Shown here: positions 1 to 52,665 of the stretch, piece after piece
Layout: each line of letters starts with the position of its first letter
Numbering within the stretch: position 1 is the stretch's first letter
Virus record (IMG/VR): IMGVR_UViG_3300032285_003819
Coordinates: 1 to 52,665 of that record
DNA: 52,665 nucleotides
DNA from: a virus
Taxonomy: Duplodnaviria > Caudoviricetes
Direction: 5' to 3' (one strand)
Notes under the pieces: generated by a model
Databases searched by the model: none
Seen by the model: the letters and a program-made list of their open reading frames with translations, nothing else
What the model was told of the DNA's origin: nothing
Translations under genes and position numbers: made by a program

Positions 1-165
1 GCTAGTTCCCGAAGTTCCGGAAGATCCACTGGTTCCAGAAGATCCACTAGTTCCTGAAGTTCCTGAAGATCCACTTGTTCCTGAAGATCCACTTGTTCCC
101 GCAGATCCACTTGTTCCAGAAGTTCCAGAAGACCCACTGGTTCCACTGCTTCCACTAGTTCCCCC
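1..165. repeat. Coding (GTSGSS)n repeat block running off the window
   Basis: Same periodic units as 604-957. Confidence 0.95.
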
Positions 166-3410: not shown

Positions 3411-3416
3411 TTACAC
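3411..3416 (-). promoter_or_regulatory. GTGTAA late-promoter-like box
   Basis: 8 nt before ATG 3402; doubles as the Val-stop codons of J. Confidence 0.55.
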
Positions 3417-23100: not shown

Positions 23101-24762
23101 TGTGGCATTTGGAATATAACCTCCTGCGCGATTTACTTGTAATCCACCAGATCCTTTTACTCTTACTCCTTGCCCAGCTAATTGAGCAGCTAGTTGTTTA
23201 GCAAGAGTTGACTGCATTTGATATTCTGCTGTCTGCTGTCTTGCTATTTGAAGTAATAATTGAGCTTGTGCAGCTTGATTACCCATCAATCCAGAAAGAG
23301 CTTGTGCCGCTGGCCCTTGTTGCTGCATTATTTGCAAAATAGATTGTTCAATATTTTTTCTATTTTGTGTTTCGGTGGTGATACCAGCAATCTGAGGTAA
23401 AGCCTGACTAAGATAAGTAAAAGAATTTTGTATTAACTTGAAAAGAGTAAAGAAAGCAGCAATGGCACCTGGACCAGCTATTACATTACGGATGCCTTTC
23501 AATAAGCCATTTGCAAAAGTAGAACCGGCACCTTCTCCTTCAAGAACTTCATTTATGTTTTCAACGAATGATTTCAACTGCTGTGCGCCATATTTCGCTA
23601 ATGGCTCAAATGTTACTTTACCAATATTATTTGCTAGTTGTTGAGTTGAAGTGGCAGTTTGTTTTAATAATGCATCAAGAGTTAGATTCAATTTAGCAGT
23701 TGCGACTTCAGCTTCATTTGTTGCAGACGCGCCTCTCTGTAAAGCTCCTGCATAAACTCCTTGAGATTTATTTAAATCTCCAACAATTGCTTTTAATATG
23801 TTGACTTGATAAACACCGGCAACTTGTTCTGATAATTGCGCTCTTTGAGCATCAGCCAAACCTTTATAAGCTCCAGCAAAATTTTGTAATATTTGTACAG
23901 CAGGTAATGTATTTCCTTCTACATCTCTAACCGCTATATTAAAAGCTTCTAGTTGATCAAGAGTATCATTACGTTGCAAACGGGTAAAAATTGTTTTCAA
24001 TGCGTTACCAATTACTGCGCCACCTCTTGCAGTGCTTTGTTGAGCAGCAGTAACTAATGCATTTAATTGATCAAGACTAACACCCGCTTCCTGAGCAGCC
24101 TGTCCTGTACGAGATAGAGCTTCAGCCAAATCACCAGCCCCTACTGCATAATCTTGTTCAACTGCCACCAACTTATTTAATATTTGAGTTGTAGTTATTC
24201 CAGTTGAAGCGAAACCGTTTACAGTTGAAGTCAATGCATCAACAGCATTTGCAGTTCCAATTCCAGCCAATCTTGTTAAAGTCAACGCATCTTTAGTTCT
24301 TACCAAAACATCTTCAGCTTTTAAACCTTGGCGAGAAAATTCAAGAGCCGCTTTAGAAGCGTCATCAAATGTAGAAGCGGTTTGTTTACTGACACTAAAT
24401 AAATCTGTACTAAATTTCTGTAATTGATTGGTTGTTAGTCCGAATACACGATTAATATCTGCCAAACTTTTTTCTACTTCAATTGTAACATTAGCTAATT
24501 CTTTGAAACTACGGATAACACCACCTAGAACAGCAGTAGAAGCTCCGAATGCAATAACGCGAGCATTGGAAGCTGCGAGTGCGGCTTCGAAGTCTTTAAC
24601 GTCACCCGTCATTCTTCCAAGAGGTTGGGAGAAAGCGCGTTGATTAACGCTTAAATTAATCTGATTGTTCTGTGCAAACTTTTGATTATATGCTTGAACA
24701 CCAGCTTGAATAGAAGCGGTTAATGCTGCTTGATTGGCGGCGACATTAATTTGAACTGCCAT
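17170..24762 (-). CDS. Tape measure protein (2530 aa) with inserted cassettes
   Basis: N-terminal TP901-type TMP core (EFSRQG...ALTLTRL...DLAEALSRTG...GNALKTIFTRL); Ala/Gln-rich helical regions; hydrophobic GASFGPWGAAIGAAAG; C-terminal GTGDKYPALLENGEYVLN; followed by tail-tip genes. Confidence 0.93.
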   Translation of the reverse strand: MAVQINVAANQAALTASIQAGVQAYNQKFAQNNQINLSVNQRAFSQPLGRMTGDVKDFEAALAASNARVIAFGASTAVLGGVIRSFKELANVTIEVEKSLADINRVFGLTTNQLQKFSTDLFSVSKQTASTFDDASKAALEFSRQGLKAEDVLVRTKDALTLTRLAGIGTANAVDALTSTVNGFASTGITTTQILNKLVAVEQDYAVGAGDLAEALSRTGQAAQEAGVSLDQLNALVTAAQQSTARGGAVIGNALKTIFTRLQRNDTLDQLEAFNIAVRDVEGNTLPAVQILQNFAGAYKGLADAQRAQLSEQVAGVYQVNILKAIVGDLNKSQGVYAGALQRGASATNEAEVATAKLNLTLDALLKQTATSTQQLANNIGKVTFEPLAKYGAQQLKSFVENINEVLEGEGAGSTFANGLLKGIRNVIAGPGAIAAFFTLFKLIQNSFTYLSQALPQIAGITTETQNRKNIEQSILQIMQQQGPAAQALSGLMGNQAAQAQLLLQIARQQTAEYQMQSTLAKQLAAQLAGQGVRVKGSGGLQVNRAGGYIPNATRMAEVVGAQAGGYAPGQVVNSPVGGVMNTAESVKYIPGFAQPFINPPANSDAGRAHRQNAINRTGVDPYMYGGFIPNFGLKTLGTVRSREWASKTKQTNLVTSKTNTGPKYDDLFAANIVKKQFDLPYGFFKNMARTIVGEIYNDKNQLQSFIDQYKNKVDPSSLAKTETALKNIKNTAGFSNALNQVQGLLGEAEAYDELKQDGYTSAKGNQFFDLSAKDGRFAEVRTRQKISINDIFQKAISQYLSTTNQSYRNTNNDFIDVGSYDVISPSGSPFFSKGFIPNFAPPTSAIRVPWFKKFGNSAFDAIQPTLGISKASDVDTFRQVNFRSSAKGADKVGDNNIFAPLYEDFVFKAMQLVSQSKIKDQLIRGYALQPGTDQKQSAFDAFLGDIALEYKGFPKANLTGSISGNLNDKYERFAKANPAGAAKIKESIITFNELGHENQLPSAFGKTFSQLAGTSYSQMAKSSPDLVKGLSAETNSLLNSYVKNPAFLAMASANGFIPNFADFIDVDTLTKNSVHYSGDLMKLIKDIESSIGRNLSSGELRFLSSPKTDLSKLNDPKVLNRFINSERKGGFAGFAKGFLPNFAYKQAVMGLEESMSGNKAIFDTKPFPHIRNSSQPTFSSAIADHGGLSNALSDSMRGQKAAGLMSAGFVPNFADTKINVKGLLPNAPKNWDRSIENLEKALSQLADELIKNKTKVSQYSSELSKLTGNNKILNNILPQVEKQLIEEVAQRKKEALNQKLSSAATTLAFAGPIAAGLIEQAVYGKKERTEMTAGERVGQSVLSSGLTSLSTGASIGASFGPWGAAIGAAAGAAVGLAQALGAASLSADEFAKIAEEYKSTTQQNISAGQSYIDTLKLLGTSTDPEVIKKATTSLELNFKNIKDVKLQDAFKAAGNDVNKLTTALTSYEEKRGKIEAQKSSLAQSKALGQLSIQDLGKRGYQTVKSGPRNAIDIAANEANFSRLATEYSAFFDNINNLTENQYKQFKDALNTMDYAGNVDEDNLRKVLMTFSQLDTESVDYLVAIGENLTELGSSAGRVLRTNLDKTREAYRKNLEQGKGVLSDEQKTVLSNFAQFRRTLLDTVSDDLDNAVQALKSFESKTSFAQLVPAKLKEINDLVFNAVVNNLDSVRGFSFKQSQARTAARFQTEEFNRLTGRTITEQGLKTAQTSATFKNQATQAILGSKLIPGMSSQKAISDFLSTGTSLDKEGIKKFATSIIGKNEDEINALSSKLEGVLTQFKDATRETESQTKYKLQELAYNQVINKISEATILKQIDLEKEKLSITLGQKNAANGLRDAVEKAKISANERLELTKIQTGGEFRYLGLNKRQEFESKQVDLKSIFDQEQVIAENQAIADARRSIIEIAAQNANTEAQNKNTEALFDSIDSSATNFENLGNILSNLPFSGMKEVGSGFVTGAQEAKAKNKINRDQFQKSRESVKLAEISNFGVSDDATINDAINKLKTKRDAALTEETKASIQETITTLEIASKQIGSNATLFEAKAAQMRNDFEQSAGFVNNMAIGFQSLNNQADVMVDQLGRNLPSMFADGLVDGVKAAIKESHNLGDALMGIASKFLDEISTTFMRAGMYKILGSAGFGEMLMKQEGGIIRAQSGMYISGTGTGDKYPALLENGEYVLNRRAVAAMGGPSVLDSLNFSMAPRFAAGGSYNVDLSQGSYDYSLKQKRILQSNAVNLGNMEANMTSEGLENSPLYKDILEAQRQNQQEQLQKKIQRRQQRAAMIGQLAAAAATIAIGAGLSNVMKNAQAAKAKAFTEKINSQGGIRTEAEYLQQKQFVKQGLMTADTPLNAANYLGGTPQTGFKSLFSAPTYGQTWYQKAGSFVSSPFRRQTGGIIGSRLSDTIPGYMEGGLYNTPIVNRYGAGMQNGGSSMMAAGNSSSITNNNTNANNSFNFNTTVERDGTIKMGSNTTSYEQQDVELSKNLNQRVYAVVSEVIRKEKQFGGSLAGVRS
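21121..23121 (-). repeat. Six G[FY][ILV]PN[FA] peptide repeats within the TMP
   Basis: GYIPNA 23104-23121; GFIPNF 22867-22884, 22243-22260 and 21580-21597; GFLPNF 21334-21351; GFVPNF 21121-21138. Confidence 0.92.
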
Positions 24763-29876: not shown

Positions 29877-30395
29877 TTAAACTATATAATTTCCATATCC
29901 ATAAGGATAATAATACCAACCAGAACCTGTAAAAATTGGAGATCCATCTTCACCAGCGACCTGTTTTGGACCAGCCATATAAATATTATAAGCGGCAACC
30001 AACTTCTCCATTTCGGCTTTAGCGTCATTAGCTAAACTACGATAAGTTTTAGCGATTTCATTTTTATTTGTGCGAGTAATCATTGAATCGCCTTCTCTCA
30101 AAGTTATGAAATCAACGCTAGAATCTATTCCACGCAATACTTGACGAGTCTTTTTTGTATAAAACTCATACAAATACATTTGTTTATATATCGCTCTTTC
30201 TTCCTGCTTGAATTCGCCAGTAGGATAAACATAACCATATGAAACGCGATAATTTGTAAAAATCTTAGTATTAAGTAAGCCAATATTATTTTCTATCCAT
30301 CCTGAGATGTAATAAAATTGTGCATAACCGCTATCATAATCAAATTCATTAGCAAAGATTTCATCAGCTATATCATGAACGCTATATTCTACCAT
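29877..30395 (-). CDS. Putative head-tail adaptor (connector) protein
   Basis: Helical, 172 aa, downstream of the MCP; LREGDSMITRTNK resembles the adaptor beta-hairpin. Confidence 0.5.
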   Translation of the reverse strand: MVEYSVHDIADEIFANEFDYDSGYAQFYYISGWIENNIGLLNTKIFTNYRVSYGYVYPTGEFKQEERAIYKQMYLYEFYTKKTRQVLRGIDSSVDFITLREGDSMITRTNKNEIAKTYRSLANDAKAEMEKLVAAYNIYMAGPKQVAGEDGSPIFTGSGWYYYPYGYGNYIV

Positions 30396-36958: not shown

Positions 36959-38824
36959 TTAAGCTATGAATATCGGTTCGAAAGTATCCATAACGTCATC
37001 AACCTGAGCATTACTCATATCGAAGAATATTTTACAAAGCCAATTACCTAATACTAATGCAGAATAGCTATCTTTTCTAGGTTTATCTGGTCCAGATTTA
37101 CGTTTTAAATTAGCTGGAAGATCAAAATTTTGCATACCTTGTGCCGAAGTTGTTATTTGTATAAGAGCGCACTCTGTTTTTGTAAGCAAAATCATATCTG
37201 ATAAATGTTCAACAAAGTCAATCATCTTAGCTTCTTCATTTTCTTTTTCAGTATCTAAAGCATTAGAAAATTTAAGATCTGTAATACCAATATGCTTCTT
37301 AGTTTGATTTCTAAAATTATCATCTATAGCTCTACTAGCAAAATAAGTTCGACGATGATCAAAATTAGCTTGCAACATTTCATTTGCCACTCTTATCCAA
37401 CCAGAAGTTGGTTTTCTTAAGAAGACGTATTTGAAATCTGATCTGTTATACTCACTTTTTGCAGAATAAAGGTTCTGCGTATATTCTTCAGGTCGTTCGA
37501 ACTCAGTTGTTATTGGCTTGAGATTTATTTTAGCATCTTTAAACAACTCACTCTCGTTACAAGAATTCATAAATTGAACGCCACCGTTATAGTCCATACA
37601 AATGCCAACTACATTAAAGTTTTGTATTAAATATAAAAAGTATTTAATATGATCTTTTAATGAAGATCCAGAAAGAGCATAAGAATGAACTAAAGTATTC
37701 ATTTGTTTTTCTCTATTTATTTTTAATACTTGAATTGCAAAATCGTCAGAAGATTCTGTTTCTGACCATGAAGGATCAACAGCTAATATATATTCATCTT
37801 CTGGATAACCAACAACTTCTACAGAAGGAAGCTCACCATCAGGAACCGTACATAAAGCCATTTTAGATATTTTAAAATATCCTGAACTATCATCACTAAA
37901 TTGTGCGCCAAACTCTCGCAAAAACTGAGACTCGCTCATCGTAGCTTTAGCTTGATTGATTAAGTTTTGATCGTATAGCTGAACTGGAGCGCAATCATAA
38001 GAAAACTGCATAATACAACGTTTTGTTTTTTCATTATTTTTAGGATTGAATATTAAGTTATCATATTGTTCGTATAGCTTATATAAATATTCAAATTTAA
38101 AAGATGCAGATGATAATGCAATTAATTTATTATTAGGCCAGATATATCTGTCATTCTCAGTCATCTCTCCTTTAGCAATCAATTGTGATTCTAGATTATA
38201 TAATTCTTCTCTCTGAGTTGGGTTTTGAACTACAGACAAAAATGGTACAATGACTTCATTATAAATGCGTTCAGGCATCAATAAAAACTCGTCAATAATA
38301 ATACGATGAAAACGAAATCCGCGCAGCTTTTCACCATCACCTAATGGCAAAGCGCGAATACGGCTCTTACCAATCTCCATTACCCATTCATCATTAGATT
38401 TGGATATTTTTGTAATGCATTGTTTTAAAAGATAGGCTTCTGGTTTGGCAGCAATATCTTCTATCTTTTTGAAGATCATTTTTGACTGACGAAATGAGCG
38501 TGACAATATACCAGTCTCAACTCCCTGATTTAATATCGCATCAAGCACAGCATAAATACCAGTAGTATAAGATTTACTCATACCACGCGACCACACTCCT
38601 AGAAAATAGTCACTTTCCAACATGCCTTTAATAGCCATATGTTGAAATGGAAATAATTTAACTCCTGTTATTAGATCCGTAGCAAAAGTTGTATTGTTTC
38701 GAAGAAATTGATAAAACAATAACTTCGCTTCACGCTCTTCTAAATAACCAGGAATCTTAGCTAATTCCTCATTGGAAATGAGCTGCGATTTCCTTGGTAC
38801 TTGGTTGCCTGTTTCCCAACTCAT
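36959..38824 (-). CDS. terL: Terminase large subunit
   Basis: LFPFQ, Walker A-like SRGMSKS, SFRQSK, LRGFR, Walker B IIIDE, FLREFGAQF, nuclease AVDP...SDDFA, KDSYSA. Confidence 0.92.
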   Translation of the reverse strand: MSWETGNQVPRKSQLISNEELAKIPGYLEEREAKLLFYQFLRNNTTFATDLITGVKLFPFQHMAIKGMLESDYFLGVWSRGMSKSYTTGIYAVLDAILNQGVETGILSRSFRQSKMIFKKIEDIAAKPEAYLLKQCITKISKSNDEWVMEIGKSRIRALPLGDGEKLRGFRFHRIIIDEFLLMPERIYNEVIVPFLSVVQNPTQREELYNLESQLIAKGEMTENDRYIWPNNKLIALSSASFKFEYLYKLYEQYDNLIFNPKNNEKTKRCIMQFSYDCAPVQLYDQNLINQAKATMSESQFLREFGAQFSDDSSGYFKISKMALCTVPDGELPSVEVVGYPEDEYILAVDPSWSETESSDDFAIQVLKINREKQMNTLVHSYALSGSSLKDHIKYFLYLIQNFNVVGICMDYNGGVQFMNSCNESELFKDAKINLKPITTEFERPEEYTQNLYSAKSEYNRSDFKYVFLRKPTSGWIRVANEMLQANFDHRRTYFASRAIDDNFRNQTKKHIGITDLKFSNALDTEKENEEAKMIDFVEHLSDMILLTKTECALIQITTSAQGMQNFDLPANLKRKSGPDKPRKDSYSALVLGNWLCKIFFDMSNAQVDDVMDTFEPIFIA

Positions 38825-40796: not shown

Positions 40797-41513
40797 TTAA
40801 GAAGAGAATATATCGTTTTCTTTCAGTAGCGCTTGAGCTTTTATATACAACATTTTCTTTAAATTTTTTATTTGCTTGTAGCCAGCTTTTCTACCTTTTT
40901 CATTTGTTTTAAATTTTAGAATTTTAGCAACTTGATCATCTGTTAAATTATCTATAAAAAACATTTTATAAACAAAGTAATGTTTATCGCTTAAATGATT
41001 TTTCATCAAGTCGTGTAACTTATTTTCTGCATTTTTATAGTCATAACTAGCGGCAGATTCGCAATTCATAAAATAATTCTTATGATTTTCCAAACTTACA
41101 GTTATCTTAACATCGTAAGCAGACTTTTTTATCTTTTCCCATTTCGCATATAATGGACACTCATTACATTGCTTACTGCTTGGAGTAAAACCACAAGACA
41201 TCTCAGACCCAGAATCGCCTTCTTTATTTTGATTGAATGGACAAGACAAACAAGGACGCGCAAAACTTGTATAATTATTACGAATAATATTTCTGATCTG
41301 ATTCGTGACTATACGGTTCACCCAAGGCTCAATAGCTCGCGATTGATCCCATAGATGCCATTTTTTATAGATATGGAGCTTTATTATTTGCTCTATGTCT
41401 TCAAAATCAAACCAAGTAATCGCTTTTAACTTCCATTTATTTTTACGCTTTTTGATTACTTGGTCGATTGTTTCATACATTTCTTCAAACTTTTTCTTTT
41501 TACGATTCATCAA
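40797..41513 (-). CDS. ECF-like RNA polymerase sigma factor with a Cys-rich insert
   Basis: Region 2-like DFEDIEQIIKLHIYKKWHLWDQSRAIEPWVNRIVTNQIRNIIR; region 4 HTH-like LSDKHYFVYKMFFIDNLTDDQVAKIL; insert CLSC...C...CNEC. Confidence 0.8.
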   Translation of the reverse strand: MMNRKKKKFEEMYETIDQVIKKRKNKWKLKAITWFDFEDIEQIIKLHIYKKWHLWDQSRAIEPWVNRIVTNQIRNIIRNNYTSFARPCLSCPFNQNKEGDSGSEMSCGFTPSSKQCNECPLYAKWEKIKKSAYDVKITVSLENHKNYFMNCESAASYDYKNAENKLHDLMKNHLSDKHYFVYKMFFIDNLTDDQVAKILKFKTNEKGRKAGYKQIKNLKKMLYIKAQALLKENDIFSS

Positions 41514-42693: not shown

Positions 42694-43740
42694 ATGGTAT
42701 TTCACTGTTTAAGTGTTCCTTATTCTCCTACTAAAAAAGATATATCATTATGCGCTTTTGTGCAAAAAGTTTATAAATTTTGCAACGAAATGACTAAACG
42801 CGGCCACATTGTTTACCATTACGGCCATGAAGATTCTATCGTTAATTGCACAGAACATATTAATGTTATTAATAATGATATATTAAAAGAGAGTTATGGC
42901 AACTTAAATGATTGGAAAGAAAAAGGATTTAATCAGAATGTAGACACTAAAGCCGTTAATATATTTAATAATAATTGTATTTTTGAATTAACAAAAAGAA
43001 TAAAATCTAAAAATGAATTTATACTATGCTGGTTTGGATTCGCTCATGAACCATGTGTTAAATATTTTTATAATAAAGCTATAGTTGTGGAGCCTAGTAT
43101 AGGTTATGATAGTATGTTTGCACCAATTAAAATATTTGAAACGCATAGTCAAATGCATAAAATGCATGGCAACTCATGCACAACTATAGGATTAGGATCT
43201 GAATTTGTTGTGCATCCAGGTTTTGATCCTAATGATTTTTTATATAAAAAACAAAAATCAAATATAGCTTTATTTCTCGGTAGAATAACCGAACAAAAAG
43301 GTGCTAAATTAGCTTATGATATTTGCAACCACACTCAACAAGATATTATTTTTGCAGGACCAAACATACTAGGTTTAAAAGATACTAAACATTGCAAATT
43401 TATTGGTTATGTCGATCCAATTAAAAGAATGTATTTACTAAGCGAAGCTAAATTTTTATTTGCACCATCTTTATTTATAGAACCTTGCAATTGGACAGTT
43501 ATTGAATCTCAATTTTCAGGAACACCAACTATAACAACAAATTTCGGAGGATTTACCGAAACTATATTGCAAGGAGAAACTGGATTAAGATGTTCAAGCG
43601 TAAATGATATGATTTACTCTGTTCAAAATATAGATAAATTAATTAACCCTGAAAATTGCTATAAAAACGCAATTTCAAAATTCACATTACAGAAACAATG
43701 CGATTATTATGATTATTTATTTAAATCATTAATGCATTGA
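42694..43740 (+). CDS. GT4-family glycosyltransferase
   Basis: LFLGRITEQKG, FAPSLFIEP, ESQFSGTPTITTNFGGFTETI...GETG. Confidence 0.88.
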   Translation: MVFHCLSVPYSPTKKDISLCAFVQKVYKFCNEMTKRGHIVYHYGHEDSIVNCTEHINVINNDILKESYGNLNDWKEKGFNQNVDTKAVNIFNNNCIFELTKRIKSKNEFILCWFGFAHEPCVKYFYNKAIVVEPSIGYDSMFAPIKIFETHSQMHKMHGNSCTTIGLGSEFVVHPGFDPNDFLYKKQKSNIALFLGRITEQKGAKLAYDICNHTQQDIIFAGPNILGLKDTKHCKFIGYVDPIKRMYLLSEAKFLFAPSLFIEPCNWTVIESQFSGTPTITTNFGGFTETILQGETGLRCSSVNDMIYSVQNIDKLINPENCYKNAISKFTLQKQCDYYDYLFKSLMH

Positions 43741-44564
43741 TCTATTTTTTCTCTAACATTTTCAAAAGATATCGTTTTACTACATTCAAAATCTTTATTT
43801 CTTGGACAATAAATCCAATTGCTTAAAATTCCTTTGACATTATCAACAGCACTATCATTAAGACATCCATGACAAACATTTTTATTTATCACTCTATAAC
43901 AATTATTAGCAAATTCGTTATCCTCATTAGTACATCCAGAAATCAATATAACTTTTTTATTTAAAGCCCATGCTAACCATGATAATCCACTGCTTATTCC
44001 AATAAAAAAACTACAATTTTTTATTTGTTGAACTCTATAATCAATAGGATAATCACCTGTTTCGTTAATAGCGTCTTCTGGGATTTTATTGAATTTTTCT
44101 TTAATTCCAAATTCCTGATATTTATCTATGACATAAACGTCATAATTCAATTTTTTTAAATAACGAACAACTTTTTGCCATCCAACAGGATTATTCCAAT
44201 ACTTCATTTGAGAAGTTGAATGAACACTTATGCAAACATATTTCTTTTTTTTATTAAAACTGTGTCTGCTTGTTGTATTAATTAATGGAATAAGTTCTTG
44301 ATAGTCCAAGCCTAATGCGTCACAAGCTATTTTTTGCATAGGCCCTTCTCTAAATATAAAACACACATCTTTGACTATATCGAAAATATCTTCATAATTA
44401 ACATCGACAAAAAAAACATTTGTATTATCTGAATAAAATAAGAAATGCCACTTTGTCTTCACATAAACTTGTCCTCCATATTTTTTTTGATAAGCGTCGG
44501 CATAAATAGAGAAAGCTATATTATCACCTAAGCTATGAGTTATAAAATTAATTAATGTTTTCAT
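43713..44564 (-). CDS. Aah/TibC-like (autotransporter) O-heptosyltransferase
   Basis: SLGDNIA, YVCISVHSTSQMKYWNNPVGW, FFIGISSGLSWLAWA, VILISG, and iron-finger-like VCHGC...CP...FECSKTI. Confidence 0.85.
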   Translation of the reverse strand: MKTLINFITHSLGDNIAFSIYADAYQKKYGGQVYVKTKWHFLFYSDNTNVFFVDVNYEDIFDIVKDVCFIFREGPMQKIACDALGLDYQELIPLINTTSRHSFNKKKKYVCISVHSTSQMKYWNNPVGWQKVVRYLKKLNYDVYVIDKYQEFGIKEKFNKIPEDAINETGDYPIDYRVQQIKNCSFFIGISSGLSWLAWALNKKVILISGCTNEDNEFANNCYRVINKNVCHGCLNDSAVDNVKGILSNWIYCPRNKDFECSKTISFENVREKIDQCINDLNK

Positions 44565-46551
44565 TTTTTAAATCGCTTATGCAATGATCTATCTTCTCTT
44601 TCACCATTTCAAATGTTATTTCTCTGCTACATTCAAAATTTTTATTTTCAGGACACCAAGACCAATTACTATATTCAAATTTATATTTTTTGTTATTAAA
44701 ACAGCTGTTACAAACATTCATGTTTTGCACACAGTAAGGAGTAAAAAATTCAAAATTTTGAGCTACTGAATTATTTATACGCACAACTTTTTTACCCAAT
44801 CCCCACGCTAACCAAGAAAGACCAGAGCTTAAACCAATAAAAAATTCACAATTATCAATTATGTTAATTATCTCATCAAATGAGTCATTACCAGCAAAAT
44901 AATCAACATTATCTGGACATTTGTTAATATAAGGAGTTCTACCAAAACTATAATATTTATCAACACAAATTACTTTGTAACCTAAATTTTTCAAATAATC
45001 AACTATTGTTGTCCATCCTTCTGCATTATTCCAATATTTAAATTGACCAGTAGTTTGAACAGCTATGCAAACATATTTCTCACAATCAAATTTTTTTTGT
45101 TGATTAAAGTTTTTAATTTTACAAGGCTCCTCTTCATAAGTTAAACCTAAAATCAAGCAAGCTATTTCTTGTAAATTTTTACTTATCCAATCCATATTAT
45201 CGAAACAACCTATTTTAAAATGAATATTTTCATTGCACATCTGTTTCTGAGTGTAATCAAAGAAATTTAATTCAGGATAAGTTTGCTGTAATATATTTTT
45301 ATATGGAGTAAAATAATTAACTTTTATATTTTTTTCTCTAGCATATCTAGCAACAATCGGAGTCCATGCAATAAAATCGCCAAGACTATTTGATTCATTG
45401 GTTATATTAATCGTTTTTTTTTCTGACTTGTTTTTTAAATGATCGATTGCTATTTTTGCAGCTTTTTCCCATGTGAAATTTTTTCTTATAAAATCGCTAT
45501 CTTTTAATGCTTTTTGTTTATAAAATTCATAGCTATTATAAACTTCAAGCATCTTCTTTTTTAAATCATTATAATCTGGATTATAATATCCAAACATAGT
45601 ATCATTTTTATCTAAGATTTCTCCATGAACTTTTACGGCTATTCCTAATCCTTTTGCAAATTCTAATTGACCAGAACAATTTGAATATATTGATGGTATT
45701 CCACAAGCTAAAGATTCAATAAGAGGAAGATTCCAACCTTCTGATCTAGCGCATGATAAAAAAACACTACTACTTTTTATCATTTTTATCAATTCGCATC
45801 TCTCTTGAAAATCAATTATTTTTATATTTTCGCAAGTAATATTCATTTCTTCAAGTCTTTGTTTTGTAGATTTATGACTGTCATCTGGAAAATTATTAGA
45901 ACACGAAAGTAATAATTGGACATTACTATTGTTTCCAAATAATTCAACAAAAGCTTGCACTATTTCTTTTGTGCTTTTTCTTCTTTCCCATTTTCCTAGT
46001 ACTAAAAAAGTAAATTTATCATTATTTTTCAAATCTTCTGGGAAAAGTTCATTTGGATCTATTCCTTCTGGTACGATTCTTATTTTTTCACGCGAGAATC
46101 CTTGCCTTATTAAACAATCATATTGCCAATGAGTAGGAACCCAAACTTGATCAGCAAAATTTAATTTTTCAAAAAAAGAATTGGGGTATGTGGTTTTTTC
46201 CCAAACATTATAAAATATTTTTTTACCAGAATAATTATCATTATAATATTGATGAAAACAATCAACCAAAACTATATCAAATTCATGATCAAAATTATTA
46301 AGACCATTATAAATAGGCACATCGAACTGCCCATTTTCAAAAGAGCATGTTTGTAAAGCTAATATTTTTTTATCCAATTTATCTACAGAATCCCCATGAA
46401 CCTCTTTTGAATTAACCCCTTTCCAGTTTGAATCTACAGAATAATTTCTAATTTTGACATCCGATTCTTTAGATAAAGCTCTAAAAAAATTTCTAGAATG
46501 AATTGCGTATCCAGTCCTACCAATATAACAACAATGACCTAAAATTTTCAT
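44548..46551 (-). CDS. GT4 domain fused to an Aah/TibC-like heptosyltransferase domain
   Basis: N-terminal TGYAIHSR, GKWERRK, RSEGWNLPLIESLACG; C-terminal SLGDFIAW, YVCIAVQTTGQFKYWNN..GW, FIGLSSGLSWLAW, VCNSC...CP...FECSREI. Confidence 0.85.
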   Translation of the reverse strand: MKILGHCCYIGRTGYAIHSRNFFRALSKESDVKIRNYSVDSNWKGVNSKEVHGDSVDKLDKKILALQTCSFENGQFDVPIYNGLNNFDHEFDIVLVDCFHQYYNDNYSGKKIFYNVWEKTTYPNSFFEKLNFADQVWVPTHWQYDCLIRQGFSREKIRIVPEGIDPNELFPEDLKNNDKFTFLVLGKWERRKSTKEIVQAFVELFGNNSNVQLLLSCSNNFPDDSHKSTKQRLEEMNITCENIKIIDFQERCELIKMIKSSSVFLSCARSEGWNLPLIESLACGIPSIYSNCSGQLEFAKGLGIAVKVHGEILDKNDTMFGYYNPDYNDLKKKMLEVYNSYEFYKQKALKDSDFIRKNFTWEKAAKIAIDHLKNKSEKKTINITNESNSLGDFIAWTPIVARYAREKNIKVNYFTPYKNILQQTYPELNFFDYTQKQMCNENIHFKIGCFDNMDWISKNLQEIACLILGLTYEEEPCKIKNFNQQKKFDCEKYVCIAVQTTGQFKYWNNAEGWTTIVDYLKNLGYKVICVDKYYSFGRTPYINKCPDNVDYFAGNDSFDEIINIIDNCEFFIGLSSGLSWLAWGLGKKVVRINNSVAQNFEFFTPYCVQNMNVCNSCFNNKKYKFEYSNWSWCPENKNFECSREITFEMVKEKIDHCISDLKNENIN

Positions 46552-48722
46552 ATAATAATATAATTATGTCTTATATATCTATAAAATCCATACGAGTAAC
46601 TTTTTACTTGGTTCTGTATTTTATTAAAATTTTCTTCTAAAATTTTATCTAATTCATGTTTATTATCAAAATAATTTTCTTCTAAATAATATAAAATAAT
46701 TTTAGCTTTATTATTGTTTGATTTTATTTTATCAACCGTGTCTTTTATAAAATTTGAATTCAAAAAATAATCGCAAATTATCAAATAAAAATCAGAATCG
46801 TAATTACAATCAAAATCTATTTTACAATCAGAATATAAATTTCTGAATTTATTTTTTTGATCCAAACTTAAATTTTGCGAAATAATGGATATAGATTTAT
46901 TATGTAAAATATTTATTCCTAAAATCAACAAACCCGAAGTTTCTTTATAAATATCATTAAAAATATAATAAGGATCATAACAATTATTTTTTAATTTATT
47001 ATATGCTAAATCAAAATTCGCATTGAAATTGGGTTTTGCTGGAGAATGAGAATCAGAATCTTGTCTTAATTTCCAATTGTATAAGCATCTAGGTATATGC
47101 ATCCATTTACCCAAACTATTAAAATACATAACTCTATATGAATCTTCAGAAACAGCGTTAAAATCATTTATTTCGAAATTAATTTCTTTGATATTTTTAA
47201 AACATCTTAAATGGCTAAAAGCATAATAAGAAATATTATTCAAATAATTTATATTTGGATGAAATGATGGTAAATTATCTAAAAGATTTTTGTTATTTTT
47301 TAGCAAAGATATAGAATGAAAATTATTATTTTCTGTTTTTATAAACTCACTGCTTATAAACACAGCTTCTGGATAAGACGATGCGAATTTATTATAAATA
47401 TTTAAAAAGCTTGGATCAAATTCGTCATCACAATCTATCAAAACTATATAGTCAAATGAAGAATCAAAAAATTTATTAGGTTGCCAGAACATTTCTTTTT
47501 TACGAGACTGTTCTACATATTTTACATTTTTAAAATATTTTATTTTTTCAAGAAGCATTGATTTAGTATTATCAGAACTAAAATCATCAGTTATTATCCA
47601 CTCAAAATTATCGTAATCAATTTTAGATATTTGATCAAATATAAAATCTACAAATTTTTCTGCATTATAAAAAGATGTATAAAGACCGAATTTTTGCCTT
47701 TTTAAAGGATAAATATTATTCATTTTAACACTAGAAAGATCGTATTTTGGATACACTATAGATTTATTTATAGATGTAATATCGATCTCTTTAAATTTTT
47801 CTAAAACATCATTATAACTAGGATGACATTTAAAAGTTTTATATTTTTCTAAACAATCTGGTAAATAAGGAGTAGCATTTATAGTTCCCCATTCTTTTAC
47901 TGAATATTTTACATCACTTGTGCAAAAAATTTTGCAATCTCCTCCTATAAATTTATATTTATAATCTCTTGATCTTTTTCTTATTGGATTGACATATCTA
48001 TAATCTGATGCAGTTCCTACTTGTATTATCCATGCATCAGTCGTACCAGCCACATGAAGCGGACCAGAATCCATAGTAATTATACAAATAGAATTATTTA
48101 TCAAATGCCACATATCACTGATAGAAGAACCATCATTAGAGTAATTGATTATATTATTACCTTTTGGCACAAAACATTTTTTTTCAATAATTCCTTCAGA
48201 AGTTGGTTCTAAATAATCTTTTCCAATTACTACTATATTATAACCTAATTCACTTATTTTATCGGCAAGATTCTGCCAATTTTCTTTGCTCCAAGTTCTA
48301 TTCTTCCAATTAGAGGTAGTATGTATACAAACATAGTTATTTAGGCTTTTAATATCATATTTACAATGTTCATCTGCAAAAAAATCTAAAGTTAATTCTT
48401 CATCTAATAAATCAAAACCTAAATCAAAAGCGCAACTTCTTCTTCTATCACAAGTATGTATTTTTCTAAGAGATTTAATTCTAGAATCTTTGAAAAAACT
48501 TTCCATTTCAAAACAAGATAAAACTTCATATTTAGATTCGTCCACTTCTTCTTCTAAAAAAAAATTAGAATCTACATAAGGATTATTTTTAAAAAGACTG
48601 GGGTATTTAGATTTTACACTTATTTTTCTTCCATAAGCTTTTGATAATTTTCTTAAAGCTGGAGTAGCGCAAAGAGTATCGCCCATACCATAACCATGTA
48701 TCTTTAATAACACTTCTTTCAT
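46548..48722 (-). CDS. GT9 (heptosyltransferase-like) plus GT2 fusion glycosyltransferase
   Basis: GMGDTLCATPALRKL, NRTWS..NW, MDSGPLHVAG, four Cys; C-terminal GT2 SFYNAEKF, IITDDFSSDNT, IDCDD, SED. Confidence 0.85.
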   Translation of the reverse strand: MKEVLLKIHGYGMGDTLCATPALRKLSKAYGRKISVKSKYPSLFKNNPYVDSNFFLEEEVDESKYEVLSCFEMESFFKDSRIKSLRKIHTCDRRRSCAFDLGFDLLDEELTLDFFADEHCKYDIKSLNNYVCIHTTSNWKNRTWSKENWQNLADKISELGYNIVVIGKDYLEPTSEGIIEKKCFVPKGNNIINYSNDGSSISDMWHLINNSICIITMDSGPLHVAGTTDAWIIQVGTASDYRYVNPIRKRSRDYKYKFIGGDCKIFCTSDVKYSVKEWGTINATPYLPDCLEKYKTFKCHPSYNDVLEKFKEIDITSINKSIVYPKYDLSSVKMNNIYPLKRQKFGLYTSFYNAEKFVDFIFDQISKIDYDNFEWIITDDFSSDNTKSMLLEKIKYFKNVKYVEQSRKKEMFWQPNKFFDSSFDYIVLIDCDDEFDPSFLNIYNKFASSYPEAVFISSEFIKTENNNFHSISLLKNNKNLLDNLPSFHPNINYLNNISYYAFSHLRCFKNIKEINFEINDFNAVSEDSYRVMYFNSLGKWMHIPRCLYNWKLRQDSDSHSPAKPNFNANFDLAYNKLKNNCYDPYYIFNDIYKETSGLLILGINILHNKSISIISQNLSLDQKNKFRNLYSDCKIDFDCNYDSDFYLIICDYFLNSNFIKDTVDKIKSNNNKAKIILYYLEENYFDNKHELDKILEENFNKIQNQVKSYSYGFYRYIRHNYIII

Positions 48723-49078
48723 GTAAAATGTTTAAATTCTAGAACGCTAGAATTGTAATTTTTATTTATTTCTGATTTTATCTTGAATCGCGCATCGTTA
48801 TTTTTATAGACGCTTCTGGCTAACTCTACGAATTCTGTATCGAATTCATTATTCTTTTCTTTTATTCTTATATCATCTTCGATATACCATAATTTTTGAT
48901 TAACATTTTGCAAATCAGTAAAATACCTCTGTTCAATATTAAAAGGTTTAATAATTTCATTTATTAAATTGATTTCTTCATCAATTTTTATAGAAGCATT
49001 TGGTATATTTTGTTTTTTTATTTTTAATATTGTTATCTTGTCAACTGCTTCGCCGATAGAAACTGGAATTTGTATCAT
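48719..49078 (-). CDS. DUF6165-like protein
   Basis: IPVSIGEAVDKITILKIK...VNQKLWYIEDDIR...FVELARSVY.NND.R..IK..IN. Start set at Met12 (49078). Confidence 0.75.
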   Translation of the reverse strand: MIQIPVSIGEAVDKITILKIKKQNIPNASIKIDEEINLINEIIKPFNIEQRYFTDLQNVNQKLWYIEDDIRIKEKNNEFDTEFVELARSVYKNNDARFKIKSEINKNYNSSVLEFKHFT

Positions 49079-49085
49079 ATATATT

Positions 49086-50060
49086 TTATGCAAGAGAACG
49101 ATTTTTTGCAAAAATAATTCCCAACTTTTCTGATTTTACGATTACCCTATATTCAAAACCATTTTTCTCAAAGAAAGAAGTTAAATTTTGAAAATGACCG
49201 TGATATTCAACAGCTATTTTTCTGATATTATTTTTTATATAGTCAGCATTTTGTTCTGTGAAAATATAATGCTCTCCTCCTTCACAATCGCACTTAAAAT
49301 AGTCAATTTTTTGAATATTATTTTTGTTTATAAAATCTAAAAATGAGTAGCCTTGAATTTTTTGCTGAGGTCTATTTCTATCATACCAATTAATATTTTC
49401 ATTATCTGCTATAAAATTAGCTGGATCTGTATCAGATAACAATACTAAATATTTTTCTTCTGTTTTATTGGATATAGCTACATTATTCAACACAACTTGT
49501 GGAAAATGAGCGAAATAATCTTCGAGAATAGAAAAAGATTTCAATGAAGGTTCGCAGCAATAAATTTTTGAACATTTATTGTTTATTGCTTTTGTTATAA
49601 AAGCTCCAATATTTGAACCAATATCTAAAACAACATCATTCTTTTCTAAGGAAAAGAAATCAGAATCATATTCTTTAAAACAAAAAACTTCCATAAAACT
49701 ACTCATTTCTATTCCATCATTAATATATTTTAAAATTTGTGGAGCTTCTGTCAACGCATCTGACATTTTAAAATTAGAAGAGTAAAAAGATTCTGAAAAT
49801 ATTAACTCCTCATCATCAAAAATTTCTAATCTCAATGAATTAGATATTTTTTCGCCAATTGAATGTCCTATAAAATAAACATAATCTTTTATCAATATCA
49901 TATCATCATAATGATAAATAAAATTAAAAAAACCATCTTTCAGTTTTACTGATAAAATTTTATTTTCATATTTTGAATCATTTAATTTGAAATGAATAAC
50001 TGCTTTTGATGGATTCAAATTAAACTCTATTCCAGTTATTGTAAACAGTTCTTTTTTCAT
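49086..50060 (-). CDS. FkbM-family SAM-dependent methyltransferase
   Basis: VVLDIGSNIGAF, CCEP, NVAIS, IDYFKCDCEGGE, IAVEYH. Confidence 0.9.
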   Translation of the reverse strand: MKKELFTITGIEFNLNPSKAVIHFKLNDSKYENKILSVKLKDGFFNFIYHYDDMILIKDYVYFIGHSIGEKISNSLRLEIFDDEELIFSESFYSSNFKMSDALTEAPQILKYINDGIEMSSFMEVFCFKEYDSDFFSLEKNDVVLDIGSNIGAFITKAINNKCSKIYCCEPSLKSFSILEDYFAHFPQVVLNNVAISNKTEEKYLVLLSDTDPANFIADNENINWYDRNRPQQKIQGYSFLDFINKNNIQKIDYFKCDCEGGEHYIFTEQNADYIKNNIRKIAVEYHGHFQNLTSFFEKNGFEYRVIVKSEKLGIIFAKNRSLA

Positions 50061-50869
50061 TATGTGATGTTATTTAATTTATTAATATTCGCACATGAGT
50101 GTCGCACTTCTTGTTTAGCTTCCTTATATATTATATCGCTACTGAACTGTTTTGCTAGCGTATTTATCGAAATAGAATTGCCGGTGCCAATATTGAAAAT
50201 TTCGTTTTTGATTTGTTTATTTAATAGGTTAGAGATATGATTACATACATCGTTGACGCTTATAAAGTCTCTTGTTTGTTCGCCATCTCCATATATAGTC
50301 AATGGTTCTTTCTTCTGAAAAGCAAGATTGAATGCCGTAATCACTCCAGCATATTGCGGATTCTGTCCTTGACCAAATACATTAAAAAATCTAAATATTA
50401 AATAATCGATGCCCCACAATTGGCAATACATTTGTATATACTTCTCGGATACTAATTTATCTAATCCGTATGGGCTATTAGGCTCTGTAGAATCTGTTTC
50501 GCTAACTGTTCCTTCTTTATTACCATATACTGCTGCACTAGATGAGAATAAAAATTGTTTGATGCCGTGAAGTTTGGCGGCTGACAATATCTTTATAGTC
50601 AAGAATGTATTATTGCCGAAACTATTTACTGGATCTTCAAATGATCGCGGCACACTTACCATTGCTGCGAGATGAATTATGCAATCTACTGCCTTAAATA
50701 TGTTATCGTTAACGTCGATATCTAATATGTCTATGATTTTTTGCTTGTCAGTAGGAAGTGCGGTGCTAATAACTTTATCCAAGTTATAAACGTCATGTCC
50801 ATCGCTAGACAATTTATTTATTAGATGCGTACCGATAAACCCGCTGCCGCCAGTAATCAATATTCTCAT
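50060..50869 (-). CDS. NAD-dependent nucleotide-sugar epimerase/dehydratase
   Basis: ITGGSGFIG, HLAA, SSSAAVYG, YGLDK (YxxxK), RFFNVFG, GDGEQTRDF. Confidence 0.93.
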   Translation of the reverse strand: MRILITGGSGFIGTHLINKLSSDGHDVYNLDKVISTALPTDKQKIIDILDIDVNDNIFKAVDCIIHLAAMVSVPRSFEDPVNSFGNNTFLTIKILSAAKLHGIKQFLFSSSAAVYGNKEGTVSETDSTEPNSPYGLDKLVSEKYIQMYCQLWGIDYLIFRFFNVFGQGQNPQYAGVITAFNLAFQKKEPLTIYGDGEQTRDFISVNDVCNHISNLLNKQIKNEIFNIGTGNSISINTLAKQFSSDIIYKEAKQEVRHSCANINKLNNIT

Positions 50870-51222: not shown

Positions 51223-51550
51223 TTATAGTATATTGTATATATAAAAGCTTGGGTTTTTATAGTTTTTGTTTTAAAAAATAAGAGGTCGTTTATTTTTTTT
51301 GTTTTTTAATAGGGATTTATGGCTTGTTTTTGTTTTGTTTTTTTAAATGGCCGGGGGGGGTATGGGTTGTGTTGTTATTGAGATAAGAAAGAGGTAGATG
51401 TAATAAATAGATATAAGATATAAGTTAGGTATATTGGAGAATATATAAGATAGAATAAAATGAGTTGAGAGATTGAGAATAGCCTCCCCCTGCCTCAGCT
51501 CCAAAAAGTCAAGAGAAAAAAATTTCAAAAAAACGGTAGGGGTCGGAGGG

Positions 51551-51567
51551 TTGGCACGGTTCCTGCT
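51551..51567 (+). promoter_or_regulatory. sigma54 (-24/-12)-like motif
   Basis: TTGGCACG-GTTC-CTGCT, one mismatch to TGGCACG-N4-TTGCW. Confidence 0.55.
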
Positions 51568-51627
51568 GGCCGCAGACCCCCCTCCCCCAGGCCATCGGAA
51601 AAAAGTGAAAAAAGTTATCTGAAAGTG

Positions 51628-51656
51628 TTGACGGCCACCGAGTTTTCCCCCATAGT
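51628..51656 (+). promoter_or_regulatory. sigma70-type early promoter, leaderless
   Basis: TTGACG-N17-CATAGT with an A-tract UP-like element; ATG at 51663 falls at the expected +1. Confidence 0.7.
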
Positions 51657-51662
51657 GTGTCC

Positions 51663-51902
51663 ATGCAAAACGAGATTGTGATTCTGAAGGTCAGCAAGTT
51701 CAAGACGGTCGCGCTGGTTGGTGTGACGTACCGCAAGGCGGACGGCACGACTGGCGTGTCACACGGTAAGACAGAGGCGGAAGCAATTGCAAACATCAGC
51801 GTGGTGATTCCTGCGAAAACGCTTGACTTCGCCCCGCTTGCAAAGCGCAGCACTAGCGGAAGCTACTTCCGCAACAACAACGGGATGATGGTTGAAGTCT
51901 GA
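51663..51902 (+). CDS. Small early hypothetical protein (79 aa)
   Basis: MQNEIVILKVSK...; GC-richer codons; own promoter. Confidence 0.7.
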   Translation: MQNEIVILKVSKFKTVALVGVTYRKADGTTGVSHGKTEAEAIANISVVIPAKTLDFAPLAKRSTSGSYFRNNNGMMVEV

Positions 51903-51921
51903 AAAAAGTCTGAAAAAAAAG

Positions 51922-51950
51922 TAGACAGGAAAGAGTTTCTACCCTACCTT
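51922..51950 (+). promoter_or_regulatory. sigma70-type early promoter, leaderless
   Basis: TAGACA-N17-TACCTT with an A-tract upstream; ATG at 51957; same geometry as 51628-51656. Confidence 0.62.
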
Positions 51951-51956
51951 AACACC

Positions 51957-52115
51957 ATGACGAATGACTTCGCCAACATCAGCGCCGAGAGCAACCTGAG
52001 TGACATGATCGCCCTGTCCGCAGCCGAGATCATCGAAGCCAACGCATGGTTCGATGAGCGCAACGAAAGCGCAGTGACTCAGATGGACAACGACGAAATA
52101 CCTATGTCATTCTAA
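51957..52115 (+). CDS. Small acidic early protein (52 aa), below the ORF-track cutoff
   Basis: MTNDFANISAESNLSDMIALSAAEIIEANAWFDERNESAVTQMDNDEIPMSF*; own promoter; C/G-ending codon bias. Confidence 0.7.
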   Translation: MTNDFANISAESNLSDMIALSAAEIIEANAWFDERNESAVTQMDNDEIPMSF

Positions 52116-52164
52116 TAACACAAAACAGTAGTAGTAATACTACAAAACCTTTTTTACAAATAAT

Positions 52165-52377
52165 ATGACTCAAACTACTAAAGTTATTAGTTTTACTGAC
52201 AAGAGCGGTATTCGTAAATACGTTCTTACTGTGTTCAAAGGCAAGAACGAAAACAACACGCCTATCGTTTATCCGAAAGGTTTGTCAGTTGGAGACTACA
52301 CTAGGTACTGGCTCGCAATACAAGAACAGTATGGTCAAGTCTGTATTCGTACTGGTTATCGCCTTAACCAACTTTAA
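52165..52377 (+). CDS. Small hypothetical protein (70 aa)
   Basis: ATG after an A-rich leader; same orientation as the other early ORFs. Confidence 0.6.
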   Translation: MTQTTKVISFTDKSGIRKYVLTVFKGKNENNTPIVYPKGLSVGDYTRYWLAIQEQYGQVCIRTGYRLNQL

Positions 52378-52391
52378 TAATAAAACAATAC

Positions 52392-52574
52392 ATGAACAAC
52401 CTCAAAGACATTGACGCTAACGAGATTGCCACTATTCGCATTGCACTGTTAGACAAGATTGATAACATTAAAACTTACATACAAATGTCTAATGATTTGA
52501 AACAACCCATTAGTGCTAAATACTGGGAAGAATCACTAGACAAACATACAACACTGTTAAACAAGCTGTACTAA
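52392..52574 (+). CDS. Small helical hypothetical protein (60 aa)
   Basis: ATG after an A-rich leader; amphipathic helices. Confidence 0.6.
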   Translation: MNNLKDIDANEIATIRIALLDKIDNIKTYIQMSNDLKQPISAKYWEESLDKHTTLLNKLY

Positions 52575-52608
52575 TACAGCCGCCGACCTTGTAGTAGTAC
52601 AGGGTCGC

Positions 52609-52647
52609 AGCAAGAACCGTGCCAACCCCCTTGGCACGATAGTTGCT
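52609..52647. promoter_or_regulatory. Back-to-back pair of perfect sigma54 consensus motifs
   Basis: Minus strand TTGGCACG-GTTC-TTGCT (52609-52625) and plus strand TTGGCACG-ATAG-TTGCT (52631-52647), separated by CCCCC. Confidence 0.65.
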
Positions 52648-52665
52648 CCCCCCCCCCCCCCCCCC

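Follow-up and report, generated by a model that had tools for sequence, protein, structure and literature searches.

A glycosyltransferase island and a collagen-like fiber gene in one phage fragment

The window analyzed here is the whole of the viral record IMGVR_UViG_3300032285_003819 (IMG/VR), a linear stretch of 52,665 nt with an estimated completeness of 36%, which reads as a fragment of a siphovirus-type phage with about 30% G+C. This report concerns an island of sugar genes toward one end of the window, two of whose products carry glycosyltransferase domains of the BAHT family (the family of the E. coli enzymes TibC and Aah), and a gene for a collagen-like fiber at its other end; their coordinates and those of two landmark genes are collected in Table 1. 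A first-pass annotation of this DNA had proposed that the island's enzymes O-glycosylate the fiber, and the two computational tests described below, a comparison of profile matches and a survey of co-occurrence in other viral records, both came out in favor of that interpretation.

Table 1. Coordinates of the fiber gene, the sugar-gene island and landmark genes in the 52,665-nt window (GT, glycosyltransferase family; LPS, lipopolysaccharide).
Feature	Position	Strand	Length (residues)	Matches and remarks
Collagen-like fiber	1-3402	-	>=1134	Cut by contig end; proposed acceptor
gpJ-like central tail fiber / tip protein	3411-6956	-		PHROG 31 'central tail fiber J' E 2.5e-102; Pfam Phage-tail_3
Large terminase	36959-38824	-
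Stand-alone GT4	42694-43740	+ (opposite strand)	348	Pfam Glycos_transf_1 E 1e-13
Short stand-alone BAHT-type glycosyltransferase	43713-44564	-	283	Pfam GT9-like; TIGR04414
GT4-BAHT fusion	44548-46551	-	667	GT4 ~45454-46551 (N-terminal), BAHT ~44587-45492 (C-terminal)
GT9+GT2 fusion	46548-48722	-	724	GT9-like ~47970-48503, GT2 ~47304-47675
DUF6165 protein	48719-49111	-	130	Pfam DUF6165 E 4e-9; not listed in the first-pass annotation
FkbM-family methyltransferase	49086-50060	-	324	Pfam Methyltransf_21, TIGR01444
SDR-family nucleotide-sugar epimerase/dehydratase	50060-50869	-	269	Pfam Epimerase E 4e-56

The domain content of the island was determined with Pfam as follows: in the 667-residue protein Glycos_transf_1 covers residues 168-300 and Glyco_transf_9 residues 483-619, and in the 724-residue protein Glyco_transf_9 matches residues 74-251 (E 4e-10) and Glycos_transf_2 residues 350-473 (E 2e-14). 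The GT9+GT2 fusion, the two GT4 domains, the FkbM methyltransferase and the sugar epimerase of the first-pass annotation were all found where it had placed them. The SDR-family enzyme scores 148 bits with the GalE model and 120 bits with the ADP-heptose 6-epimerase model, both of which are under the respective cut-offs. Comparison of the GT4 and GT2 domains with solved structures gave weak, generic matches (E 0.002-6e-9) that offer no hint of an acceptor.

Are the two BAHT-type domains closer to protein heptosyltransferases or to the GT9 enzymes that build LPS? The curated equivalog NCBIfam TIGR04414 (hepto_Aah_TibC; 374 profile positions, cut-off 200 bits) matches the 283-residue protein with 202.7 bits over profile positions 86-373, which is a small margin over the cut-off, and residues 354-655 of the 667-residue protein with 227.1 bits from profile position 59 onward. 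The LPS heptosyltransferase equivalogs (WaaC/WaaF/WaaQ) gave only 17-34 bits, against cut-offs of 134-569, with all three GT9-like domains of the island, so that both domains called Aah/TibC-like in the first pass keep that assignment when LPS families compete for them. They also match the TibC structure 4rap (E 1e-43 for the 667-residue protein and E 5e-37 for the 283-residue protein). The LGD catalytic motif and four Cys residues of the former align with those of 4rap, and the motifs KYWNN..GW, IG.SSGLSWLAW and CxxC...CP...FEC, which the first-pass annotation had quoted, are visible in the 4rap alignments of both domains.

The residues that matter in TibC are described in PMC4358343, according to which Asp-110 is the catalytic base, Thr-226, Lys-230, Arg-286 and Trp-305 bind the sugar, Cys-339, 342, 358 and 370 are ligands of a structural iron, and the difference between TibC's Pro-300 and AAH's Ser-294 sets the preference for D,D- versus L,D-heptose. 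In the short phage protein D14, T117, K121, R177 and W196 align with TibC D110, T226, K230, R286 and W305, respectively, and C231, C234, C253 and C261 align with the four iron-binding Cys (C339/342/358/370); all nine of these residues are invariant in 20 homologues of 43-80% identity. The catalytic Asp, the four sugar-binding residues and the four Cys (CxxC...CP...FEC) align in the fused copy as well. At the heptose-selectivity position the phage protein has a Ser (S191, also invariant in the 20 homologues), as does AAH. The short copy lacks the N-terminal flattened beta-barrel that TibC has in residues 1-97, and in the fusion the GT4 domain stands ahead of the catalytic domain. On sequence grounds, both copies are catalytically competent members of the BAHT catalytic-domain family with a changed N-terminus. 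The predicted four-Cys finger has kept the residues with which it would bind iron, and the Ser at the position of AAH Ser-294 is the one, indirect, sign that the sugar transferred may be heptose from ADP-heptose.

The fiber gene starts eight bases past the gpJ-like gene, and because the latter lies directly upstream we place the fiber in the tail module. Its product has a 606-residue N-terminal part followed by three G-X-Y blocks that are separated by globular domains; the first block has 93 residues (window positions 1306-1584), the second 120 (601-960) and the third at least 54 (1-162), and Pfam Collagen (PF01391) matches the protein in three stretches (E 5.5e-32). Ser or Thr fills 165 of the 178 X and Y positions and Pro none, and 62% of the block residues are Ser/Thr, which confirms the earlier description of a Pro-free Ser/Thr triplet fiber at this end of the window. 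No other open reading frame (ORF) of the window has a Ser/Thr-rich stretch. The known collagen stabilizers are lacking, since the fiber has neither Pro/Hyp nor Lys-Gly-Asp/Glu charge pairs, the latter of which are described as common in viral collagens (PMC11923368).

One of the globular parts, residues 700-814 (window 961-1305), is an all-beta domain of about 115 residues that recurs between the collagen blocks of several phage fibers with 30-54% identity. It is 53% identical to a protein that is encoded 40 bases downstream of the GT4-BAHT gene in the 166-kb phage L481. Two of its loops, with the motifs STxTTDSDPGSG and DDSTST, are nearly invariant. In a predicted model of the domain (mean pLDDT 89.7) the DDSTST stretch is the least confident part and appears loop-like (pLDDT 62 in residues 51-60); the best VIA-align Z of this model, 6.2, is in the range of common arrangements. 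C1q-like globular domains, as in BclA, were looked for in this fiber and not found: residues 900-1070 gave linker-like noise only when compared with the PDB, and the 700-814 model has no Foldseek match at E<=0.001 (best 0.13).

BAHT genes and Ser/Thr triplet repeats in other viral records

Are the two gene types associated elsewhere? Records were scored as having a BAHT if they match TIGR04414 at E<=1e-10. The repeat-bearing set consisted of IMG/VR contigs with the DNA pattern (GGNWSNWSN)x8 (80 loci listed of at least 120 stretches, one of them set aside because its contig was already represented; 72 records searched), and a BAHT was found in 23 of the 72 (12/44 plus 11/28), 21 of them over the equivalog cut-off; among the records at least 90% complete it was found in 6 of 11. 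A first control of arbitrary records, taken by an arbitrary 14-mer from contigs of at least 10 kb (n=47, from 80 loci listed), contained one BAHT-positive record; the repeat pattern is present in two of these 47, and the BAHT-positive record is one of the two. A second control was made up of contigs with any collagen-like repeat (GG at nine-base spacing x12; 76 new loci, 68 searched), which were classed by their Ser+Thr share at X/Y. With a share of 0.64 or less none of 67 has a BAHT, and with a share of at least 0.75 two of four do (these include three loci from the repeat set); the single new BAHT match among the 68 records has a share of 0.79. Fisher tests gave p 3e-5 for 23/72 against 1/47 and p 4e-8 for 23/72 against 0/67, and the co-occurrence of Aah-like genes with Gly-Ser/Thr-Ser/Thr proteins, which the first-pass annotation had put forward for testing, is borne out.

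In the reverse direction, the repeat pattern was found in 9/46 BAHT-selected records against 2/47 arbitrary ones (p 0.027), and in both of the two BAHT-selected records that are at least 90% complete. Five BAHT-selected contigs (G126, G136, G122, G154 and G153) end in repeats like this window, and so assembly breaks lower the count of repeats in that set; assemblies seem to break at repeat genes, which hides the linkage of fiber and enzyme in fragmentary records. At least 577 viral stretches encode a BAHT relative.

For relative position, up to 10 kb to either side of the BAHT gene was examined in 25 BAHT-positive records, namely the 23 repeat-selected ones and the positives of the two controls, with frames read from stop to stop, so that the intergenic gaps given are slightly understated. 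In 18 of the 25 this stretch includes a Ser/Thr collagen-like ORF, which in seven of them is less than 1 kb from the BAHT (L458, L460, L461, L462, L464, L473 and L481); in L470 and L472 only FkbM, DUF6165 or GT9 homologues separate the repeat gene from the BAHT gene. In records longer than 100 kb, where the selection does not force proximity, the repeat ORF is within 10 kb of the BAHT in 7 of 10. Among the GenBank phages only 4 of 50,697 records have a BAHT relative. The cultured Microcystis phage Mel-JY01 (PP395634.1) has a 1016-residue frame with 528 G-X-Y residues and a Ser+Thr share of 0.84, which lies 1.7 kb from a GT4-...-BAHT fusion that also has a weak TibC_1st match (E 5e-4). This repeat frame (2-3049, plus strand) is missing from the deposited annotation and is truncated where the linear record begins; the record lists instead a hypothetical coding sequence at 739-2298 on the opposite strand and a short one at 2519-3052. 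LR756501 matches the pattern 888 times and has a repeat frame at a distance of about 5 kb from its BAHT (LR756503 is a companion of equal length). Near bacterial BAHT genes a Ser/Thr triplet run within 10 kb was found in 1/80 loci, and it has only 27 residues; the pairing of fiber and enzyme is not confirmed in bacteria within this 80-locus sample.

The fused architecture of the 667-residue protein recurs in viral records. All nine long BAHT frames that were scanned are GT4+BAHT fusions, as is the Mel-JY01 protein, and some of the fusions have an extra FkbM, GT32-like or GT25 domain. The BAHT domain is preceded by at least 300 residues in 22/25 and 41/105 viral frames against 0/90 bacterial ones, and every GT4-TibC fusion seen came from a viral record, none from the bacterial ones examined. 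In one distant phage, as in the window, a short stand-alone BAHT copy, here of about 294 residues, comes after a GT4-BAHT fusion (G067; L478 4610-7764), and the fusion and the short copy may work together. Another fusion (G013; L467 1175-5311) is 1379 residues long and has a weak match to an intein splicing domain within its GT4 part (E 3.6e-7, below the Pfam cut-off).

The other island genes accompany BAHT genes to different degrees. FkbM homologues were found in 42/80 BAHT-selected viral loci against 0/80 bacterial BAHT loci, and in L472 and L473 an FkbM domain is fused onto GT4-BAHT; homologues of the stand-alone GT4 are within 10 kb of the BAHT gene in 28/80 related viral loci. A homologue of the GT9 domain of the 724-residue protein lies between the repeat and BAHT genes in L470 and near the BAHT in L473. 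DUF6165 homologues are within 10 kb of the BAHT in 5/25 repeat-bearing stretches at 1e-5 (L464, L472, L477 and L479 among them; 4/25 are under 1e-8), and were not found in 80 bacterial BAHT loci or in 80 arbitrary viral loci. The SDR gene is not conserved beside BAHT genes elsewhere (7/80 and 0/25 loci).

A quick IQ-TREE phylogeny (LG+G4, SH-aLRT support only) was calculated from 78 rows that represent 224 domain sequences at 70% identity; for the bacterial rows the starting set was the 80 sequences that best matched the viral query, thinned at that identity. Eighteen bacterial rows and an E. coli plasmid gene that directly precedes an autotransporter gene form one clade (SH-aLRT 100) and all viral rows fall outside it. 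Nineteen repeat-selected rows and Mel-JY01 make up one group (support 98), and of the window's two copies the short one belongs to a viral clade of five rows (99) and the fused one to a viral clade of 27 rows (95).

The remainder of the window and its relatives

On the minus strand the genes are ordered endonuclease VII, the sugar island, PhoH, a zinc-ribbon protein, an ERCC4-type nuclease and the large terminase, and these are followed by head genes without family matches, a 2530-residue ORF, minor tail proteins, the gpJ-like tip protein and the fiber. Most of the head and tail proteins have no match in PHROGs or Pfam. The 2530-residue ORF (17170-24762) occupies the position of a tape-measure gene, which, if that is what it is, would imply an unusually long tail. 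A 238-residue protein (40797-41513) has a weak match to sigma-70 region 2 (E 1.6e-4, under the cut-off) and may be a phage sigma-like factor encoded upstream of the packaging genes. The window starts (1-162) inside the fiber's triplet repeats and ends (52647-52665) in a poly-C run; its last 1.4 kb (51223-52665) has a G+C content of 0.38, against 0.23-0.31 in the island, and contains short ORFs only. Searches of the window for tRNA genes and Rfam families gave no match. Scanning the island for promoters and terminators gave results at the level of chance, with 74 promoter-like sites where 69.6 are expected and 1 terminator-like site where 4.1 are expected. The island DNA has no similarity match among the 50,697 GenBank phages, and relatives of the large terminase are only 26% identical.

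Two relatives from the repeat-pattern selection, G004 and G014, have head genes 65-88% identical to those of the window and the same PhoH-GT4-BAHT order, and they encode (GSS)n proteins. These proteins (L468 1-1851 in G004 and L565 1-963 in G014) have about 40-50 N-terminal residues ahead of the repeats and are encoded directly after the head-gene block; they may be head fibers or decoration proteins. At the corresponding position the window has an unrelated 172-residue ORF (29877-30395).

A putative fiber glycosylation cassette, its rivals and its relation to known systems

Taken together, the above findings make us moderately confident that this phage encodes in the island a cassette for protein O-glycosylation, the target of which is its own collagen-like fiber. 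The steps could be as follows: in the host cytoplasm the two BAHT domains would transfer the first sugar from a nucleotide-sugar to Ser/Thr hydroxyls of the (Gly-Ser/Thr-Ser/Thr)n repeats, the fused GT4, the stand-alone GT4 and the GT9+GT2 protein would extend the glycan, and the FkbM enzyme would methylate it. The sugars would probably stabilize, and protect or shield, a triple helix devoid of both proline and charge pairs. The results above show to which family the catalytic domains belong, that the catalytic and sugar-binding residues are kept, what kind of protein the fiber is, and that the two gene types are associated statistically and in position across phages; we infer what the acceptor and the sugar are, in which order the steps occur and whether rigidity, shielding or mimicry is the purpose.

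The donor is most likely ADP-L,D-heptose, because the heptose-binding residues are conserved and the selectivity position has the AAH-like Ser, and it would be taken from the host or made by genes outside the fragment. The first-pass annotation had noted that gmhA and hldE are absent, and indeed neither gmhA nor rfaE domain I or II has a match in the window; its further conclusion that the donor would come from the host draws on about a third of a genome, and with a record about 36% complete the absence of heptose genes from the window says little about the whole phage. Among five complete BAHT-positive phages, rfaE domain II-like sequences are present in three and domain I-like sequences in two, all below the cut-offs, which is suggestive at most of phage-encoded ADP-heptose synthesis.

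How do these phage genes compare with known glycosylation systems? They resemble the E. coli pairs TibC-TibA and Aah-AIDA-I (4RAP/4RB4) in the match to the catalytic GT-B domain, in the kept residues and in the thumb region, which aligns without gaps, and many modifications would be expected on one repeat-rich surface protein in both cases. The heptose-selectivity Ser is common to AAH and the phage copies, whereas TibC has Pro. The differences are that the enzymes are phage-encoded here and that Pfam found no autotransporter among the window proteins scanned, whereas the canonical gene has an autotransporter gene directly downstream of it, as on an E. coli plasmid; that the beta-barrel is missing from the short phage copy and replaced by a GT4 in the fused copy; that no viral sequence falls into the one clade formed by the bacterial enzymes (SH-aLRT 100); and that the presumed acceptor is a collagen-like triplet repeat in place of a beta-helix.

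The collagen-like exosporium proteins BclA of Bacillus anthracis and BclA3 of Clostridioides difficile offer a parallel on the side of the acceptor, as they are surface fibers with Gly-X-Thr-type repeats whose hydroxyls are O-glycosylated, which is presumed for the phage fiber. PMC7157674 describes the C. difficile sgtA gene as lying directly upstream of bclA3, and its product SgtA as adding GlcNAc to Thr, and in vitro to Ser, of GPT collagen repeats; in the phages the transferase gene is similarly beside the collagen-like gene in 7/25 records. SgtA is according to the same source a GT-A enzyme with TPR repeats that uses UDP-GlcNAc, unlike the BAHT-type GT-B enzyme that would initiate the glycan in the phage, and the BclA repeats are GPT, with proline, in bacterial spore proteins, whereas the phage fiber is a Pro-free virion protein. 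In mycobacteriophages (Freeman et al. 2023, as cited in PMC12619734) virion glycans are reported at the C-termini of capsid and tail-tube subunits; there, too, phage-encoded glycosyltransferases act on the phage's own structural proteins, but the presumed target here is a collagen-like fiber and the enzyme family is BAHT. The effect of a sugar on the helix has precedents as well. The discussion in PMC11923368, with its references 28 and 103, states that (Gly-Pro-Thr)10 forms a triple helix only when its Thr is galactosylated, and that in Riftia cuticle collagen glycosylated Thr stands in for hydroxyproline in stabilizing the triple helix. In these cases, as is presumed for the phage, the sugar sits on a hydroxyl residue of the G-X-Y triplet, although Riftia collagen is an animal collagen with galactose and the phage helix is Pro-free and made of Ser/Thr. 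A full-text literature search, with subscription journals and supplements outside it, returned no paper that links TibC/BAHT enzymes with phages or collagen-like proteins and nothing relevant on O-glycosylated phage tail fibers.

Several of our results weigh against a fiber glycosylation cassette. The fiber and the island are 39 kb apart in the window, and so the argument from adjacency rests on other phages; the adjacency there is strongest for the viral BAHT group of 19 rows plus Mel-JY01, which is distinct from the groups of both window copies, and among the 80 loci selected by BAHT similarity, the closest relatives of the window enzyme, a repeat is within 10 kb in two only. The co-occurrence controls are unmatched for habitat or phage lineage and many of the records are fragments. 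Of the 72 records with the repeat 49 show no BAHT, among them 5 of the 11 with a completeness of at least 90%, and so the enzyme is not obligatory for such fibers; conversely, a strict pattern search found no match in LR756504, a 636-kb phage that has a BAHT. gmhA is present in none of the five complete BAHT-positive phages. With respect to the enzyme itself, the beta-barrel that is absent from the short copy is a dimer-contact part of TibC according to PMC4358343, and what TibC and AAH recognize is a strand-loop-strand motif in a folded beta-helix (the TIGR04414 name; PMC4358343), not a collagen triplet.

The last of these points has a counterpart in the view that the BAHT domains glycosylate some other protein, be it a Ser/Thr loop of the globular domain between the collagen blocks, a different protein of the virion, for instance the gpJ-like tip, or a protein on the host surface, for instance an autotransporter adhesin. 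Known BAHTs are reported to modify folded proteins at loops that join short beta-strands (PMC4358343), and the near-invariant STxTTDSDPGSG and DDSTST loops of the inter-collagen domain, the second of which is loop-like in the model, are Ser/Thr-rich; since the domain accompanies the repeats, co-occurrence does not tell which of the two is the acceptor. The association nevertheless tracks the Ser/Thr content of the triplets, being absent (0/67) with other collagen-like repeats; the hundreds of acceptor hydroxyls in the triplets suit the hyperglycosylating habit of the family; and Pfam found no autotransporter domain among the window proteins scanned. We think an acceptor of this kind unlikely. 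An island that remodels a glycan of the host envelope (LPS core, O-chain or capsule), for example against superinfection, and that merely sits in a variable tail-fiber region, seems to us about equally improbable. GT9, GT2 and GT4 are typical polysaccharide and LPS families, and glycosyltransferases together with rfaE in the tail-fiber hypervariable region of pelagimyophages have been read as modifiers of the O-chain (PMC7029224), but the two key domains score above the cut-off of a protein O-heptosyltransferase equivalog and fall short of every LPS heptosyltransferase model by >130 bits, and hitch-hiking in a fiber region leaves the 0/67 among records with other collagen-like repeats unexplained. 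Pfam and NCBIfam scans of the island moreover revealed no flippase, polymerase or lipid-carrier transferase. Least probable by a wide distance is glycosylation of the phage DNA as a protection against restriction: this is described as a common role of phage glycosyltransferases (PMC12619734, PMC10202952), but the window proteins scanned include none for synthesis of a hypermodified base, the enzymes match the family of a transferase that acts on protein serine, and the BAHT gene is positionally linked to fiber genes. The specificity for Ser/Thr triplets and the family match speak against the envelope-glycan and DNA explanations, and do not separate the triplets from a globular loop of the fiber.

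The modification of phage particles with sugars by the phage's own enzymes has been documented for very few phages, and glycosyltransferases encoded beside tail-fiber genes in aquatic phages have usually been read, in PMC10202952, PMC7029224 and PMC12619734, as modifiers of host LPS or of DNA. If the fiber is indeed the acceptor, the pairing of a GT4-TibC fusion with a Gly-Ser/Thr-Ser/Thr fiber would mark glycan-coated fibers in at least hundreds of uncultured phages, and the BAHT family, known only from the glycosylation of adhesins, would gain a second class of acceptor. It would also explain how a collagen helix can be stable without proline or charge pairs, and fiber assembly would depend on a host nucleotide-sugar. 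A stronger and more speculative form of the idea, which we hold to be doubtful at present, is that O-glycosylation by phage BAHT-GT4 enzymes replaces prolyl hydroxylation, such that without it the Pro-free, charge-free Ser/Thr collagen fibers of many aquatic phages, ranging from siphoviruses of 50 kb to huge phages of 700 kb, could not fold or survive, and assembly and infectivity would hang on the host's pool of ADP-heptose, a precursor of the LPS core. Were this form correct, a widespread and unrecognized pathway of phage protein glycosylation would have come to light. The proposal is open to direct test because a carrier of both genes, the Microcystis phage Mel-JY01, is in culture.

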